A DNA stretch of 64,000 nt from a virus. Taxonomy: Duplodnaviria; Caudoviricetes. Every line of letters begins with the position of its first letter. Positions within the stretch are counted from its first letter, which is position 1. A program made the translations under genes and the position numbers. Where the stretch lies: the IMG/VR virus record IMGVR_UViG_3300035208_006730; one strand, given 5' to 3'. Positions 27,178-63,622 of the stretch are shown here, piece after piece. The notes under the pieces were generated by a model. That model was not told the origin of the DNA. It worked only from the letters and a program-made list of their open reading frames with translations, and did no database searches.

Positions 27178-27310
27178 CCTGCTACTTTCTAAGTGATTGA
27201 TCACTATGAAATTCCTGCTTCAACGAAGATAGTTTCGTATCTTTTGATACCAGAGCTTTCTTCTCGACAGGCTTGACTTCCCGAGTAGCCCTCGGTAGTT
27301 GTTTTAAGTT
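27178..27310 (-). ncRNA. TnpB omega/reRNA scaffold overlapping the tnpB 3' end
   Basis: CCGAGGGCTACTCGGGAAGTCAAGCCTG...GAAGCAGGAA pattern after the last RuvC motif; boundaries approximate. Confidence 0.65.
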
Positions 27311-28351
27311 TAGGGCCGCATTATGATCACGATCTAAAACTAAACCACATTTACAATTAAAAGTCCGGTCTGATAACTGTAGGTCTTTGATGTCGCCACA
27401 AGAAGAACAGGTTTTGCTACTTGGAAACCAACGATCAGCAACTTGCAAATCAGTTTTATAAATTACCGACTTATAAGTTGTTTGTCGTCTAAACTCTCCA
27501 AAAGCGGCATCACTTAGAGACCTTGCTAGGTAACGATTCTGTACCATGCTCTTCACATTTAGATCTTCAATAATTATCGTTTGGTTTTCACGACAAAGTC
27601 TTGTAGTCAATTTATGAAGAGAATCCTGCCGGATATCTTTAATCTTGCAATGCAAACGAGCTAATCTATCAGCAGCTTTTTTGCGATTAGAAGATCCTTT
27701 TAGTTTTCTTGAATGTCTTCTAGAAAGCCTTTGTAAGCGCTTTAGATATTTACCTAAAGACTTGGGACCTTCTATTTTTTCATCAGTAGATAGAGTCGCT
27801 AGTGTAGTAATTCCAAGATCAACGCCAATCTTTTCGTTGCCAATACGGTCTTTATGGTAGTCACCAACATTAACTTGAACGGCAAGCATCCAACGGTCAG
27901 CTACTCGGCTAACGGTAGCGCTCATTACTTTGCCAGCGAACCTTAAGGTTTCTCGCATGCTAACCCAGCCAAGAACTGGAATCCTAACTTTCTTTTCGTC
28001 AAAAGAGATTTTATCGTTAGCAATGTAGAAAGAGTCTCTTTGTCCCTTTTTATGAAATTTAGGATACCCGGTTTTCTTTTTAAAGAAAGAACTAAACGCT
28101 TTTTGTAAGTTAGCGAAGGGTTGTGCGGTACAGTCTCTATGGACATCGCAGGTCCATGGAAACTCTTGTTTACGAATAGAGTTGAAGATCTTTTTAAGAG
28201 TTGAACTCTTGGGCTTCTCGCCTAACTCGTAACGTTGTTTCCATTGGCCAAGAGCCCAATTGTAAGAGAATCTAGCAGTACCACAAGCTTTCACAAAATA
28301 CTCTATCTGAGTTTTAGTTGGCATAAGTCTTATTTTATGAGAAAGAATCAT
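27182..28351 (-). CDS. tnpB: TnpB RNA-guided endonuclease (IS200/IS605/IS607 family)
   Basis: HTH_OrfB N-terminus; RuvC GVDLG, IIEDL and DRDHNAA; SSKTCSSC zinc finger. Confidence 0.95.
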   Translation of the reverse strand: MILSHKIRLMPTKTQIEYFVKACGTARFSYNWALGQWKQRYELGEKPKSSTLKKIFNSIRKQEFPWTCDVHRDCTAQPFANLQKAFSSFFKKKTGYPKFHKKGQRDSFYIANDKISFDEKKVRIPVLGWVSMRETLRFAGKVMSATVSRVADRWMLAVQVNVGDYHKDRIGNEKIGVDLGITTLATLSTDEKIEGPKSLGKYLKRLQRLSRRHSRKLKGSSNRKKAADRLARLHCKIKDIRQDSLHKLTTRLCRENQTIIIEDLNVKSMVQNRYLARSLSDAAFGEFRRQTTYKSVIYKTDLQVADRWFPSSKTCSSCGDIKDLQLSDRTFNCKCGLVLDRDHNAALNLKQLPRATREVKPVEKKALVSKDTKLSSLKQEFHSDQSLRK

Positions 28352-39540: not shown

Positions 39541-39579
39541 GTTTCTAAAATTAAATGGCTATTGCCAAAAGGAGATTCT

Positions 39580-39816
39580 ATGGAACCTATCACGATGACT
39601 ACTCTCGTTCTCGTTGCTCTTGGTCTTGATGAAGCTCGTGATTTCGTCAAGGGCGTTACCAAACAAGCCATCGGTCGAGAAATCACCGCAGGCAGTCTTC
39701 TCGGCAGCATCGTCGGCGGCGCAGGTCGAGGTCTCGTTGAACACCTCATTTCCAAACCTGCAAAACAATACGTTGAAACTCCACCCAATGTTCAACCAAA
39801 AGAAGTAGTCGCATGA
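39580..39816 (+). CDS. Small glycine-zipper protein
   Basis: AGGAG RBS; GSLLGSIVGGAG. Confidence 0.55.
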   Translation: MEPITMTTLVLVALGLDEARDFVKGVTKQAIGREITAGSLLGSIVGGAGRGLVEHLISKPAKQYVETPPNVQPKEVVA

Positions 39817-39829
39817 ATCTCTTTACCTC

Positions 39830-40330
39830 TCCACAGCTCAGATCATCTCTATACAGGCAGTGGGGTATCGCACCACGAGTTCTAAAAGTAATTCGTGAGA
39901 CTCCATTGCTCTGGATAGTAAGAGCAAGTGGGATTGAATTTGCTCTCAGAAAACAACCGTTGAAACGGTCCTGAGAGCCGAGCGCAGAGGACAATTGTCT
40001 CTGCAATGAGATTAACCCTCAACGAACCCAAAAGGAATCTAGAATGTTGTAGCTCCGACCTACTAGTGGGATGGATACACTAGAAAATTATTGCGGACTA
40101 CTAAATGAATTGTCATGGCAAGTTAGGCCTCCAGCGCGGAACGTTCTGCCAATCGAGACAAACCTTGCAAATAACAGCTACTGTGTAAGATCCTTGTTCT
40201 AGCCCTTGATCTACACAGAAAGACTCAAAGAGTCAGAGGTAAATCGGCCGAAGGTTAGTCGTGCTTTCCTACCAAAGCCCTAGATTTACCAAAAGAATTC
40301 AGAAGGGTTGACGCTGCAAAACCCTTCACA
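39830..40330 (+). ncRNA. Candidate large structured ncRNA (unassigned)
   Basis: About 500 nt with no credible ORF and at least 8 stems, some with G-U pairs on the plus strand. Confidence 0.6.
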
Positions 40331-40458
40331 AAGGAAAACCATGTTTAATCTCTACAAAAACGGCGAATTCAAATGCTACTAACACTCGGAGTTTCAGTTT
40401 CAGGAGTTATCCTCGGCCTAGCAATTTGCTTCATCCTCCAATATATCGAGGAATCATT

Positions 40459-41226
40459 ATGACAACTTTTAATTTCGGTTTTGGCCCAATACCCGCTCAT
40501 CAACATCCAAATGGAGGTGGTTGGGTAGCGGATACCGCGAAAGTGGATCTAACTGCTTTTGTTGGGGAAAATTGTCAAGTATCCGAAAATGCTTTGGTAT
40601 CCGGAAATGCTCAGGTATCCGGAAATGCTCGGATATCCGGAAATGCTCGGATATCCGAAGATGCTCAGGTATTTGGAAATGCTTGGGTATTCGAAAATGC
40701 TCGGATATTTGGAAATACTCGGGTATCCGAAAATGCTTTGGTATCCGGAAATGCTCAGGTATTTGGAAATGCTCAGGTATTCGAAAATGCTTGGGTATTT
40801 GGAAATGCTCGGGTATTTGGAAATGCTCAGGTATTCAAAAATGCTCGGATATCCGAAGATGCTCAGGTATCCGAAAATGCTCGGGTATCCGGAAATGCTT
40901 GGATATCCGGAGATGCTCAGGTATTTGGAAATGCTCAGGTATCCGGAAATGCTCAGGTATCCAAAAATGCTCAGGTATTCGGAAATGCTCGGGTCCTTGG
41001 TATTCTCCATTCTGGTAATTGGAAGAAATCACCGATATTTATCCAAGGTACTCGAGATTCCATTTCCCAATGTGGACTCGATACCCTTCACATCGGATGT
41101 CAATGTCATTCGATAGAAGAATGGATTCGAGAAGGAACCAATATTGGGAAACAAAACGGATATTCGGAAGAAGAAATTGAAGAATATTTGAAACACATTA
41201 AATACATCCGAAGTTGCATCAAATGA
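40459..41226 (+). CDS. Hexapeptide-repeat (left-handed beta-helix) protein, copy 1
   Basis: 23 units of (S/F)(G/E/K)(N/D)A(Q/R/W)(V/I). Confidence 0.85.
   Translation: MTTFNFGFGPIPAHQHPNGGGWVADTAKVDLTAFVGENCQVSENALVSGNAQVSGNARISGNARISEDAQVFGNAWVFENARIFGNTRVSENALVSGNAQVFGNAQVFENAWVFGNARVFGNAQVFKNARISEDAQVSENARVSGNAWISGDAQVFGNAQVSGNAQVSKNAQVFGNARVLGILHSGNWKKSPIFIQGTRDSISQCGLDTLHIGCQCHSIEEWIREGTNIGKQNGYSEEEIEEYLKHIKYIRSCIK
40579..40995 (+). repeat. 18-nt tandem repeat (about 23 units)
   Basis: Consensus GTATCCGGAAATGCTCAG. Confidence 0.95.
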
Positions 41227-41507: not shown

Positions 41508-42376
41508 ATGCAATTGCCGTTACCATTCATTACTGAAATAACACTGCAAAAACGCTGCACCCAACTCCTCAATTCTTGCCCATCACTCATCCTTCAAAAT
41601 AAAATCGCTGATATCATCTCAAAACCTCATCTTTACCTCTCAGGAGATAAGTCTTTACTCCTGGAGATATTAGAGATATTAAGGAAAGATATTAGTGTTC
41701 TTTTTGAATGGAAAATGGAAGAAATTGATCTTCTCATCAAAACAGCACGGAGAAAAAAATGAAGTGGATGTGGATGCAAATCCAGAATGGATCCATGTAT
41801 TGGTTCGAGAATGAAAATTCTCCACCAATCGAAGTGATACTTGAACATGAACTAGATGACGGCTGGTATCTGAACCAAGACCAAGAAATCATTCCTCTCA
41901 CAAAAGTTCCACCCCCCGCTAGGGGGTAGGGGGCTACTCAACTTCTCTGTCCTAAAGGAGATTTAAAATGAGATCCTGTCGAGAATGTAAACATTTCAAA
42001 ATGGATCTTAAAACCAGGGACACAACTTGTACTTGTCCAATACCTGTCTGGGTAGAAAATTATCTTTCACTACTTCGTTCTCTTTCTTTTCCAACTTTTT
42101 CATCTCCTCGTTCTTTACCAGAAGAAGCAAATGTAGATGAACTTTGTCCTGCATGGCATTCAGAAGATCCTCATAACAATAGTCGTACCTAGGAGAGTCC
42201 AATGAAAATAGATCTCTCAAAAACAGAACAAGAAATAATTATAGATGCTCTCTGTTCACTAATGCTTGATATCACCCGTTGTACAAATCTAGAAACATCA
42301 AAATCAAATAAAGAAATTGATCAAATAATAGCTCTTAAACAACGCATTAGCATTTTAGCTGAAGAAGAAAATTAAA

Positions 42377-46897: not shown

Positions 46898-47043
46898 GCC
46901 CGTAACTCAAGCTGGATGAATAATCCTAACAGCTAAAACCTTCTCGCACTACTCTTCAAGAAGGAAAAAGATTCAGAGACTGACCTACTCTGAATTGCCG
47001 GTGACGCTGGAAAATCCGGCTGTTTTTAAAAAAAACAGTTTAG

Positions 47044-47113
47044 GGCAGGGCTTGGCGAGGCGCGGCAGGGCAGGGCGCGGCGGGGCTAGGCATGGCGAGG
47101 CGGGGCGAGGCAA
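47044..47113 (+). repeat. (GGCNN)x14 pentamer tandem repeat
   Basis: 14 consecutive GGCNN units directly 5' of tRNA-His. Confidence 0.9.
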
Positions 47114-47122
47114 GGGTTGTAA

Positions 47123-47196
47123 CCCATCATCGTCTAATGGTAGGACGCTTGACTGTGGATCAAGAAATCTCTGTTCGATCCAGAGTGATGGGACCA
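47123..47196 (+). tRNA. tRNA-His(GTG), atypical acceptor end
   Basis: CCCATCA/TGATGGG acceptor; CTTGA-CTGTGGA-TCAAG; TTCGATC; ends A-CCA. Confidence 0.85.
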
Positions 47197-54934: not shown

Positions 54935-55449
54935 CAACCTTTATTATTACTTTTATTGCTGGAATTGGTTTTGTTTCTATTCTTAGTCTTGCCACTTATG
55001 GAATAATTCAAGTGGTTCTAGGAACATGAAAATCTCTTCAGATAATATTTTCGATGTTGTAGCAGCAGTCTATTGGTATCTGACTGACAATCATTTTGGG
55101 CAATGGTCTGATGAGTATCTAGCTCTCTGTTCAATGGAGTATTCTCCTGGAATGATGGAGAAGGGGCCGCCAACAGAAGAATCTCAAGAGATCTATCTGA
55201 ATCTAACCTCTAAAAAAGCCATTAAATTGGCCGCTAAAATCAAAAAATATCTTGACGAGGAGTACTAATGAAATCTCCAGTCTATCATCGAATTCTTGCT
55301 AAAGATCTAGTAGAAAAACTAGGTGTCAAGGATAGAAATCTTCGACTCATTCGTTTAAAGAGTCAGCGGGAGTATTGGGATACTTCAATCGAAGATGAGA
55401 TTGAATTTATGTTTATGGAGGAAGAAACAATAATTTCTAAAGATTAATT

Positions 55450-55477
55450 GTCATGTCTTAGACATGTGGATTGAAAC
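55450..55477 (+). CRISPR. Solitary type I-C repeat-like unit (variant stem)
   Basis: GT-CATGTC-TTA-GACATG-TGGATTGAAAC in a 43-nt intergenic gap. Confidence 0.65.
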
Positions 55478-55490
55478 ATGGAGGAAGAGA

Positions 55491-55736
55491 ATGAAGTCCC
55501 CCAAAAGTCTTGAAGAACTAGTAGTAAAGTACGAAACTCAAGTAACAGTTTTTCAGCGAGAACTTGCTCAACGGACAGAAGATCATCTCATTACTTTGAC
55601 TAAATATTCTGAACTTCTTCAGAAGTACACAGAGTTAGTCGAAGCAGTGAAGCATCTTGGAATGACAACCCCTGAAGACATCACAGTTAGAATAAAGAAT
55701 ATTCTGAGTGATGTTGGAGTATTAAAGGAGAATTAA
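55491..55736 (+). CDS. Coiled-coil hypothetical protein
   Basis: GGAGG RBS directly after the repeat-like unit. Confidence 0.65.
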   Translation: MKSPKSLEELVVKYETQVTVFQRELAQRTEDHLITLTKYSELLQKYTELVEAVKHLGMTTPEDITVRIKNILSDVGVLKEN

Positions 55737-56293: not shown

Positions 56294-56953
56294 ATGACAA
56301 CTTTTAATTTCGGTTTTGGCCCAATACCCGCTCATCAACATCCAAATGGAGGTGGTTGGGTAGCGGATACCGCGAAAGTGGATCTAACTGCTTTTGTTGG
56401 GGAAAATTGTCAAGTATCCGGAAATGCTTGGGTATCCGGAAATGCTCAGGTATCCAAAAATGCTCAGGTATCCGGAAATGCTCAGGTATCCAAAAATGCT
56501 CAGGTATTCGGAAATGCTCGGGTATCCGGAGATGCTCAGGTATCCGGAAATGCTCAGGTATTCGGAAATGCTCAGGTATTCGAAAATGCTCAGGTATTTG
56601 GAAATGCTTGGGTATCCGAAAATGCTCGGGTATTTGGAAATGCTCGGGTATTTGGAAATGCTCAGGTATTCAAAAATGCTCAGGTATCCGGAAATGCTCA
56701 GGTCCTTGGTATTCTCCATTCTGGTAATTGGGAAAAGTCGCCAATTTTCATCCAAGGTACTCGAGATTCCATTTCCCAATGTGGACTCGATACCCTTCAC
56801 ATCGGATGTCAATGTCATTCGATAGAAGAATGGATTCGAGAAGGAACCAATATTGGGGAACAAAATGGATATTCAGAAGAAGAAATTGAAGAATATTTGA
56901 ACTATATTTTCGTTATAGAACTTCAAAGGAGAAAGAATGGCAACTTTAAATAA
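56294..56953 (+). CDS. Hexapeptide-repeat protein, copy 2 (in frame with upstream ORF from 56078)
   Basis: GGGGAG RBS before ATG 56294; 16 repeat units; flanks nearly identical to copy 1. Confidence 0.85.
   Translation: MTTFNFGFGPIPAHQHPNGGGWVADTAKVDLTAFVGENCQVSGNAWVSGNAQVSKNAQVSGNAQVSKNAQVFGNARVSGDAQVSGNAQVFGNAQVFENAQVFGNAWVSENARVFGNARVFGNAQVFKNAQVSGNAQVLGILHSGNWEKSPIFIQGTRDSISQCGLDTLHIGCQCHSIEEWIREGTNIGEQNGYSEEEIEEYLNYIFVIELQRRKNGNFK
56414..56704 (+). repeat. 18-nt tandem repeat (about 16 units)
   Basis: Same unit as 40579-40995. Confidence 0.95.
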
Positions 56954-59347: not shown

Positions 59348-60002
59348 TTTGGATAAAATTAGTGGAGATAAAATGGTAAAAAATCAATTTGACGATATCA
59401 TTAATTTTACAGAAAAACTTAAGAATCTAACCGCAGATCTTACTATTTGTAATGCTTCTGCATTTAGTTACAAACTTGAAGATCTGAAAAAATATATTGA
59501 AAATAATAAGAACGTAACAAATGCCCGCAATATTTTAGAGATATATGATGCTATCGAACATTGGGATTCTGATATAGATTTTCCAGAGCTTTGCAAGAAA
59601 TTCAACAAACTAAAAAATAAATTAGCACGTATATCTAAAGCAATCAAAGATAAGAATACTCGTCTCGCAAAACAAATTAGCGAGATTATGGAGAACAAAT
59701 GATTTGCGCCAAGTGTTCTAATTTCGGAAGATTATTCTGTTATTCCAGTCATCGAACAACAGAATGTGACTCTTTTATTCCCAATAAATCTTTGGAAAAT
59801 GAAATATCTTTACAATTAGATCCAATTCAAAGAACTTTTCTTCGAGATCTAGTTCAAAGTATTATTTTTTCTTGTGAAGCTGAATTGGGAAAAACTTATC
59901 TTTCTCTCAAAGATCAAGAAAAGAATAATCTCTTTTGGGAATTCAGAAGACAAATGGCTATTACACTTTACGGACAACTGAAGGAATAATAAATGATAAC
60001 AG

Positions 60003-60034
60003 GTCGCGCCCCGCGCGGGCGCGTGGATTGAAAC
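60003..60034 (+). CRISPR. Solitary type I-C CRISPR repeat (32 nt), no array
   Basis: GTCGCGCCCCGCGCGGGCGCGTGGATTGAAAC, GC-rich within an AT-rich intergenic gap. Confidence 0.85.
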
Positions 60035-60075
60035 AACAGACGTATGGACAATATCTTGGAAATAAGGAGAGAAAA

Positions 60076-60264
60076 ATGGGAAGAGTAGAAGCATTTGCCT
60101 GTGACTTTTGCAAAAGAATCTTGTCGGGAGATATTTTTAAAATAACAGGAATAATTAAAGGAGAAGAGATTAATCTCGATTCTAGGGATTTCGGAGGTGA
60201 AATGATTTTGTGCAAGCATTGTTTTGCTAAATCTCTTGGATTTGAAGTAGTAACTAAAAGATGA
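60076..60264 (+). CDS. Small Zn-finger protein
   Basis: AAGGAG RBS; CDFC...CKHC. Confidence 0.65.
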   Translation: MGRVEAFACDFCKRILSGDIFKITGIIKGEEINLDSRDFGGEMILCKHCFAKSLGFEVVTKR

Positions 60265-62173: not shown

Positions 62174-62430
62174 GTCAATCACCCCTGAATAAATTCAGGG
62201 GCTTGAGTTGTGAAACTTAAGGGTAACAGGTTGATTAGGGGGCTTAAGGAGAAATCTTTTATGCAAACGTTACAAAGAGAGTTTAAGAACGTACCTACGG
62301 ATGCTTCACTAGTCTGTAGCTCTACAAGTTGTGAGTTAAACAGAGAGGAAACTCTCAGTGCTCATAGCAAAGTACTGATTTGTAACAATCCCGAAGTGAA
62401 TCAACATCAACTACAAACTGGTGGACTTAA
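62174..62430 (+). ncRNA. IscB omegaRNA scaffold (HEARO-like)
   Basis: GTCAATCACCCC..GGGGCTTG..GTTGATTAG..CCTACGGATGCTTCACTAGTCTGTAGCTCT..CCCGAAGTGAA; 3' boundary approximate. Confidence 0.8.
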
Positions 62431-63622
62431 AGTCAAGGTGTTTGTATTAAACATTAATGGAAAGCCATTAATGCCTTGTTCAATCACAAAAGCAAGACAT
62501 TTATTGCAAGGAGGAAGAGCTAATGTAGTTAAAAGATTCCCATTTACAATTAAATTGAATTTTGAATGTGAAAATAAAGTACAAGAAGTTAATTTAGGCA
62601 TTGATAGTGGTGCAAAGTTTATAGGTTTTTCAGCTACTTCTGAAAAGAAAGAGTTAATGTCAGGAACTTTAGTGTTAGATTTAAAAACAAAAGATCGATT
62701 AGATGAAAAAAGAATGTATCGTAGGAAACGTAGAAATAAATTAAGATATAGAAAACCAAGATTTAATAATAGAAAAAGAAAGACTGATTGGTTAGCACCT
62801 TCTATAGAAAGAAGATACCAAACTCATTTGACTTTGATAGAAAAAATTAAAAATTTACTACCTATTAAAAATGTTATAGTTGAGGTAGCAAAATTTGATA
62901 TACAAAAAATAATGAATCCTGAAATTAGTGGTGTTGAATATCAGCAAGGTAATCTTTATGAATATCAAAATATAGTTAGTTATCTTCAAGTAAGACAGGA
63001 TAATATTTGCGCTTATTGCAAGAAAGAATTTAAAGGTGAATCAAAAGCTACACATCATATTTACAGGCATGGTGATAATCGTAGAACAAATAGATCTGAA
63101 GGTTTAATTTTATTACATAAGAAATGTCACATTGATTTGCATGAGAAACATAGAGAAAAAGAATTTCAAAAACCTGTTAAAAGATATGAGCAATCAACAT
63201 TTATGTCAATAATACATAAGAGATTTTTTAAAGATATATCTGATTTACATGTAACTTATGGTTATATTACACAGGTGAAACGTAATAATTGTAATATAGA
63301 GAAAACTCATTATAATGATGCATTTATAATATCTGGTGGTAGTAATCAAATAAGAAGCAAACCTATAACTATAGAACAAAAGCATAGAAACAATAGAGTT
63401 TTACAGTTAAATAGGAAAGGTTTTAAACCATCAATTAAAAGAGAAAGAAGTAAAATATTGCCGAAAGATTTGTTTTGGTCAAATAATATTAAATATACTT
63501 GCAAAGGGATGTTTAATAAAGGTAAATATGTTTTATTTGGTGACTCTAAAAAGAAAGAATATATTAAGTTTACATTGATAGATAATATTTACAATTTTGG
63601 AAGTTTTGTATGGAATATCTAA
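62261..63622 (+). CDS. iscB: IscB RNA-guided nuclease
   Basis: PLMP; RuvC-I LGIDSG; Arg-rich bridge helix; RuvC-II VEV; HNH (CAYC..HH..N..CH); RuvC-III HYNDA; AAGGAG RBS before ATG 62261. Confidence 0.93.
   Translation: MQTLQREFKNVPTDASLVCSSTSCELNREETLSAHSKVLICNNPEVNQHQLQTGGLKVKVFVLNINGKPLMPCSITKARHLLQGGRANVVKRFPFTIKLNFECENKVQEVNLGIDSGAKFIGFSATSEKKELMSGTLVLDLKTKDRLDEKRMYRRKRRNKLRYRKPRFNNRKRKTDWLAPSIERRYQTHLTLIEKIKNLLPIKNVIVEVAKFDIQKIMNPEISGVEYQQGNLYEYQNIVSYLQVRQDNICAYCKKEFKGESKATHHIYRHGDNRRTNRSEGLILLHKKCHIDLHEKHREKEFQKPVKRYEQSTFMSIIHKRFFKDISDLHVTYGYITQVKRNNCNIEKTHYNDAFIISGGSNQIRSKPITIEQKHRNNRVLQLNRKGFKPSIKRERSKILPKDLFWSNNIKYTCKGMFNKGKYVLFGDSKKKEYIKFTLIDNIYNFGSFVWNI

Follow-up and report, generated by a model that had tools for sequence, protein, structure and literature searches.

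Why does a phage carry a single exact copy of a type I-C CRISPR repeat between two of its small genes? This question is raised by a 64,000-nt stretch of the IMG/VR record IMGVR_UViG_3300035208_006730 (the whole stretch is hereafter called the window), in which a 32-nt GC-rich word lies in an AT-rich gap at positions 60003-60034 on the + strand. Phage solitary repeat units (SRUs) act as RNA anti-CRISPRs (Camara-Wilpert et al. 2023, PMC10651486), and the original prediction took this word for a candidate of that kind, leaving a crRNA with one spacer as the alternative. Its premise that solitary phage repeats can serve as Racr decoys is sound for type I-C, where the example RacrIC1 has been validated (PMC10651486). 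On balance, and by analogy with RacrIC1, we favor the reading that the unit, termed SRU1, is an RNA anti-CRISPR of the I-C Racr kind, acquired by the phage as a copy from a type I-C array, and that a second unit, SRU2, does the same job; we hold this to be slightly better than an even bet. As such, SRU1 is a further case of a known phenomenon and not a new principle, and it leaves the current picture of phage counter-defence unchanged; the most useful new point is SRU2, in which the stem has been re-paired.

Sequence and layout of SRU1

Sequence comparison revealed that the 32 nucleotides at 60003-60034 match the repeats of type I-C CRISPR arrays with 0 mismatches. The predicted word was thus recovered exactly, with a G+C content of 75% against 33%-35% in the flanking 2 kb. 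It is the single match to the 32-mer in the 64-kb window at up to 3 mismatches, where 0 are expected from 100 shuffles. The unit consists of a 2-nt 5' overhang GT (60003-60004), a stem of 7 bp whose arms (60005-60011 and 60017-60023) enclose a 5-nt loop (60012-60016), and an 11-nt UGG-led 3' overhang, the handle TGGATTGAAAC (60024-60034), all on the + strand; the hairpin is present in the MFE fold. This is the layout of type I-C repeats, which Cas5c cuts after nucleotide 21 to give an 11-nt handle (PMC8524198). The corresponding cut in SRU1 is predicted between 60023 and 60024, and the assignment to the I-C layout, with a cut at the stem base and an 11-nt handle, holds in that the word is identical to the repeats of cas-adjacent arrays. 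For recognition, Cas5c uses the stem base, U22-G23-G24 and the 3' overhang, and not the loop or the 5' overhang; in the I-C system, it stays on the 5' handle after cleavage (PMC8524198).

In a scan with the Rfam CRISPR-DR models, SRU1 did not reach the gathering score (22.8 bits vs 45 for CRISPR-DR9) and no match was reported for SRU2. These models are old and few, and the sub-threshold score carries little weight against the exact identity to real arrays.

SRU1 occupies an 86-nt gap (59990-60075) between two small ORFs of the same strand and lies on the coding strand of both. It starts 13 nt past the stop codon of a 96-aa orphan ORF (59699-59989, +) and ends 41 nt before the ATG of a 62-aa ORF (60076-60264, +), which contains two CxxC pairs and was judged by eye to be zinc-ribbon-like. 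The leader in between (60035-60075, +) holds the ribosome-binding site (RBS) of the latter, AAGGAG at 60064-60069, which begins about 30 nt past the handle. Both flanking ORFs belong to a block that runs on the + strand throughout, from about 28.4 kb to the end of the window. Sequence scans near SRU1 revealed no promoter or terminator beyond chance, and none just upstream, unlike many described SRUs. The dose of SRU1 would thus depend on read-through of the operon.

The unit stands alone, as predicted. A scan of 120 nt on each side gave no second repeat at up to 12 mismatches, no spacer remnant and no degenerate repeat. Furthermore, tblastn with Cas3, Cas5c, Cas8c, Cas7c, Cas4 and Cas1c queries, taken from two array loci bearing the SRU1 repeat, detected no I-C cas genes in the window, in line with the earlier claim. 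SRU1 is therefore an SRU in the usage of SRUFinder: intergenic in a virus, a high-scoring known repeat, with no neighboring repeat and no cas genes.

The surrounding DNA is that of a phage. Besides many small orphan genes, it encodes a major head protein, an antirepressor, HNH nucleases and four tRNAs; when about 50 window ORFs were scanned against Pfam and PHROG, nothing but phage genes, TnpB and IscB came up. The parent contig has a length of about 186 kb, and the phage was found in landfill and groundwater metagenomes. Four other assemblies show the same flanks around SRU1 at 100% identity, and single contigs bridge the unit in metagenome runs X1 and X3; the junction is no assembly artefact. 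These four contigs, all 100% identical to the phage, are the only relatives found. No match to the phage was obtained by blastn against 50,697 phage records, no related locus by an IMG/VR search with both neighboring proteins, and no homologue but itself for a 191-aa neighbor protein among 5.8 billion proteins. The copies of the phage thus show no differences from which conservation at the SRU1 site could be measured.

A second unit with a re-paired stem

The window contains a second unit, SRU2 (55450-55477, +), a 28-nt look-alike of the I-C repeat whose hairpin is present in both the MFE and the centroid folds. It comprises a GT (55450-55451), a perfect AT-rich stem of 6 bp (55452-55457 and 55461-55466) with a 3-nt loop, and an 11-nt handle (55467-55477) identical to that of SRU1. 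A 59-aa orphan ORF without family match (55268-55447, +) ends 2 nt before SRU2. Downstream follows an 81-aa ORF without significant family match (55491-55736, +), whose RBS GGAGG (55480-55484) begins 3 nt past the handle. The exact 11-mer of the handle is expected 0.07 times per window; it was found twice, and both occurrences are intergenic, on the + strand and immediately 3' of a hairpin.

Comparison of the two units showed no change in the GT overhang, in the closing C-G pair or at any of the 11 tail positions, whereas all remaining stem positions differ with the pairing kept. A frozen handle next to a re-paired stem is unlike a decaying relic, and the features kept include every element that Cas5c reportedly reads (PMC8524198). 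At the level of sequence, the pattern argues for selection on these features, the re-pairing being weak covariation between two sequences only. The possibility that SRU2 is itself a copy of a real array repeat was rejected, as its 28-mer had 0 exact matches in IMG/VR (2.9 million viral contigs) and in the metagenome contig collection. An exact copy and a re-paired mimic in one phage together make a natural experiment on the requirements of Cas5c. The case of SRU2 also suggests that similarity-based SRU catalogues undercount diverged mimics of this type.

The ORFs flanking SRU1 and SRU2 gave no Pfam, PHROG or PDB match and belong to no known Acr or Aca family. Racr units often, though not obligatorily, neighbor acr or aca genes, and novel Acrs may be among these orphans. 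For the 96-aa ORF upstream of SRU1, an anti-CRISPR role could be proposed only by positional analogy, given that acrIC5 precedes RacrIC1.

Two further hairpins were considered and set aside. The one at 39907-39945 has 7 bp and leads into GTGGGATTGAAT, which resembles the handle but contains an additional G, and was too diverged to count as a third unit. It sits in an ORF-poor stretch (39541-40425) that may contain a structured RNA. The other, G+C-rich and located at 41906-41939, belongs to the end of an ORF and is not a repeat.

The same repeat in bacterial arrays and in other phages

The 32-mer of SRU1 occurs exactly in at least 120 genome contigs, mostly in arrays. The genomes with such arrays include Deltaproteobacteria, Spirochaetota, Acidobacteriota, Nitrospirota, Bacteroidota, Chlorobium, Methylococcales and others, more than 10 phyla among the matches listed. 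The repeat therefore does not point to a particular host, contrary to what had been expected of it. These arrays adjoin cas3-cas5c-cas8c-cas7c-cas4-cas1c operons; cultured strains among the matches include Chlorobium sp. KB01 and Methylomonas sp. TEB. At two array loci (L016 and L051), NCBIfam models matched Cas3, Cas5c, Cas8c/Csd1, Cas7/Csd2, Cas4 and Cas1c, the models for Cas5c, Cas8c/Csd1, Cas7/Csd2 and Cas1c being equivalogs. The array repeat and the adjacent cas genes share one reading direction, indicating that the orientation of SRU1 in the phage is the transcribed sense.

The metagenome runs with the phage contain many repeat-spacer-repeat joints, and the depth of the repeat bin greatly exceeds that of the phage (1405 vs about 9 in run X2, and 1077 vs about 6 in run X5). 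Thus, bacteria with I-C arrays of the exact repeat are abundant alongside the phage. The presence of the phage and matching arrays in the same runs is a co-occurrence and not a host link. Spacers adjoining the SRU1 repeat gave 0 matches to the window among 4,243 (1,762 + 2,481), and four AT-rich spacers from the same runs likewise found no match there; one match of 24/35 at 47053-47087 was dismissed as a G+C-rich coincidence. Among the phage proteins, the dCMP deaminase has its nearest homologues, 55%-60% identical, in Desulfuromonadia- or Geobacter-like bacteria, and homologues of the phage-borne IscB, at 80%-91% identity, are on short contigs; both are too weak for naming a host.

The 32-mer is also found, solitary and intergenic, in unrelated IMG/VR phages that have no other DNA in common with the window. 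One of them, IMGVR_UViG_3300031673_000079, carries it three times. Like the present phage, it has the identical 32-nt repeat (33 nt with the preceding G) in intergenic, same-strand positions and more than one unit per genome. All of its copies are exact, however, whereas the second unit of the present phage is re-paired and AT-rich. Entries in the SRUFinder table (PMC10651486) give the units of this record as I-C SRUs, with the 33-mer as repeat I-C:15730, and include other phages of the same landfill samples as well as phages with two I-C units. A unit such as SRU2 would probably escape a BLAST-based finder.

In the soil phage lineage of UViG_3300031673_000079, a gene of about 173 aa is bracketed by two exact repeats about 600 nt apart. 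This arrangement is kept in three variants (L002:358-986, L212:2101-2725 and L218 from 5373), which show indels right beside the repeats (a 4-nt indel and a 25-nt insertion) and divergent adjacent sequence, the repeats themselves being exact. The distance from unit to start codon ranges from about 25 to about 130 nt in the other phages with the 32-mer. Another SRU-bearing phage segment was found in an IMG/VR contig, in a contig binned to a Collinsella aerofaciens MAG and in a 180-kb metagenome contig (solitary repeat at L004:8040-8071, at L015:3345-3376 and on the minus strand of L130), and a MAG of an uncultured Collinsella sp. (L055) has a five-repeat array of the same 32-mer.

A putative model for RNA anti-CRISPR action

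RacrIC1, from a Bifidobacterium pseudocatenulatum prophage, is the closest known counterpart of SRU1. It is located 11 nt downstream of acrIC5, is co-transcribed with it and restores phage infection under I-C targeting (PMC10651486). Both are lone I-C repeats in sense orientation in a phage with no cas genes nearby, and both follow a small gene by a few nucleotides (11 nt for RacrIC1 and 13 nt for SRU1), with whose message SRU1 is putatively read as well. In contrast, the gene upstream of RacrIC1 encodes an AcrIC5 homologue and that upstream of SRU1 is an orphan; RacrIC1 belongs to a gut prophage and SRU1 to an environmental phage of about 186 kb; and RacrIC1 has been assayed in PAO1::IC, whereas SRU1 is a candidate known from its sequence.

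The identity of SRU1 to array repeats, its structure, its solitary state and sense orientation, the lack of cas genes and the co-occurrence with arrays are established. From these we infer transcription, Cas5c binding and cutting, and inhibition, the details of the mechanism being drawn by analogy, and propose a putative model. The phage would have acquired SRU1 from a type I-C CRISPR array. The unit would then be transcribed within a same-strand early-gene message, by read-through from the gene upstream, and its RNA would adopt the hairpin of the repeat. Host Cas5c would recognize this RNA via the base of the stem and the 11-nt tail with its leading UGG, cut it after 60023 and remain on the handle of the downstream fragment, which carries the leader of the next gene. 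Afterwards, Cas7 and Cas8c may assemble on this fragment, an RNA without target, and host Cascade subunits would thereby be drawn off the phage-targeting crRNAs. SRU2 (55450-55477) would do the same with its shorter, AT-rich stem.

The proposed action is reminiscent of RacrIF1, which traps Cas6f and Cas7f in an unproductive complex (PMC10651486), with repeat mimicry, competition for Cascade subunits and an unproductive complex as the common elements, on the side of SRU1 as proposals. The two systems differ in that RacrIF1 is driven by a strong promoter of its own, the hairpin is held by Cas6f, and the inhibitory product in I-F is the part upstream of the cut (PMC10651486). The processing enzyme of I-C, Cas5c, instead keeps hold of the downstream handle, so that SRU1 probably differs from RacrIF1 both in the subunits it would trap and in its active fragment. 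If active, SRU1 would be an RNA anti-CRISPR against one of the most widely shared I-C repeats, with arrays in more than 10 phyla among the matches listed, and could serve as a broad I-C inhibitor in many bacteria.

Alternative explanations

The same observations can be read in other ways. SRU1 might be a neutral relic, either a scar left when the phage recombined with a host I-C array or the final remaining unit of an array that the phage once carried. Its 75% G+C marks it as foreign and possibly recent, and the identity of all phage copies makes selection at its site undemonstrable. In addition, it is flanked on either side by the 5-nt word AACAG (59998-60002 and 60035-60039), a pair that was not seen at the other solitary units examined and may be the trace of an insertion event or a product of chance. 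A relic of an array should nevertheless be hard to reconcile with the finding that only the repeat itself is foreign, with neither spacer remnant nor degenerate repeat near it, and that it is placed exactly in an intergenic gap in sense orientation. The perfect stem and intact handle that SRU2 retains despite a different stem sequence, as well as the recurrence of the 32-mer in unrelated phages, again in intergenic positions, also speak against decay; we regard this explanation as unlikely. A role at the level of DNA, in which the 32-bp identity with host arrays serves recombination or integration into CRISPR loci, would equally account for the match of 32/32, as needed for a DNA attachment site, and such a role for SRUs has been raised in literature to which parts of PMC10651486 refer. 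Yet the Pfam and PHROG scans turned up neither an integrase nor a recombinase in the window, the metagenome runs show only array-internal joints and intact phage contigs, and SRU2 keeps the RNA features with no DNA identity to any array in the searched collections. We therefore consider this role highly improbable, and give just as little credence to a plain RNA hairpin that acts as a stabilizer or terminator independently of Cas proteins. The hairpin of SRU1 is indeed stable and G+C-rich, but it has no U-run 3' of it on the + strand, and the fold energy of the region is unremarkable (z -0.37). Such a function also leaves unexplained the exact identity to a CRISPR repeat and the 11-nt single-stranded handle common to SRU1 and SRU2.

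Two further explanations retain the use of host Cas proteins and assign it a different purpose. The downstream RNA with the handle might form a crRNA-like guide, a one-guide weapon or regulator directed against sibling phages without the insert, against other mobile elements, or against the promoter of a host cas or toxin gene in the manner of Cracr or CreA-like RNAs. A single repeat could in principle load the downstream sequence, given that Cas5c stays on the 5' handle (PMC8524198), and viral crRNA-like regulators, the Cracr RNAs, include I-C examples (Liu et al., bioRxiv 10.1101/2024.10.29.618823). Like these and viral mini-CRISPR arrays, SRU1 would be a phage-borne, repeat-derived RNA that uses host Cas proteins, as proposed here. 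However, Cracr RNAs and mini-arrays depend on a seed match and on a spacer that ends in another repeat, often a degenerate one, and neither was found: no such repeat lies within 120 nt on each side of SRU1, and the would-be spacer is the RBS and start of the next gene. The search for a protospacer with a TTC PAM, by which the one-spacer crRNA was to be recognized, came back empty as well. The 41 nt downstream of SRU1 have no protospacer in phage and plasmid collections, and a search for TTC plus seed across 817 kb of sequence surrounding I-C arrays yielded no match of 10 nt or more, with one 9-nt match for SRU2 (0.1 expected) and none for SRU1. Moreover, removal of the units would place CAG/GAT (SRU1) and ATT (SRU2) before the would-be protospacer, and not a TTC PAM. 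The one-spacer alternative is thus not borne out, and a guide of any such kind now seems very improbable indeed. As a different use, Cas5c cutting and Cas7 loading near an RBS might alter the stability or translation of the downstream gene, by which the phage would sense or exploit the I-C system. Such a Cas-dependent control of its messages would fit the position of both units just before a gene start, with the RBS 3 nt (SRU2) and 30 nt (SRU1) past the handle, and the gene bracketed by two repeat copies in the unrelated phage. The spread of unit-to-start distances elsewhere, about 25 to about 130 nt, reveals no consistent geometry, and any insert into a small intergenic gap comes close to an RBS. 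We know of no precedent for a control of phage messages by repeat units and judge it very unlikely.

A combined reading, in which both units are decoys and at the same time Cas5c-operated processing sites before RBSs in early messages, so that host I-C proteins alter downstream cutting, stability or translation, appears distinctly doubtful to us. If it were true, SRU2 would show that these sites evolve by re-pairing of the stem with the handle frozen, and such units would match no known repeat and be invisible to similarity-based SRU searches. The RNA anti-CRISPR reading, with SRU1 as an exact copy and SRU2 as a mimic, is the one we retain.

Other features of the window

Downstream of SRU1, the window contains an IscB element. 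It consists of a HEARO (IscB omega) RNA at 62174-62405 (121 bits), a 470-aa IscB with RRXRR and HNH domains at 62210-63622, and an IS200-type Y1 transposase from 63610 onward. In other assemblies of the phage, the sequence agrees fully up to 62173 and leads thereafter into a different gene, a beta-helix paralogue. The divergence after 62173 indicates that the element is present in some members of the population and absent in others. A TnpB with OrfB_IS605 and a Cas12f1-like TNB domain is encoded at 27182-28351, at the border between the structural block on the minus strand and the small-gene block on the plus strand. Just upstream of tRNA-His (47123-47196), there is a 77-nt G-rich tract (47041-47117) of GGCGAGGCG- and GGCAGGGC-like units, which stands out in the AT-rich genome. 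Finally, near-identical copies of a beta-helix gene carry variable 18-nt arrays at 56294-56901 and 40459-41000. In the metagenome runs, the beta-helix region shows a several-fold higher depth and many variant letters, indicating that the 18-nt repeats vary within the population.
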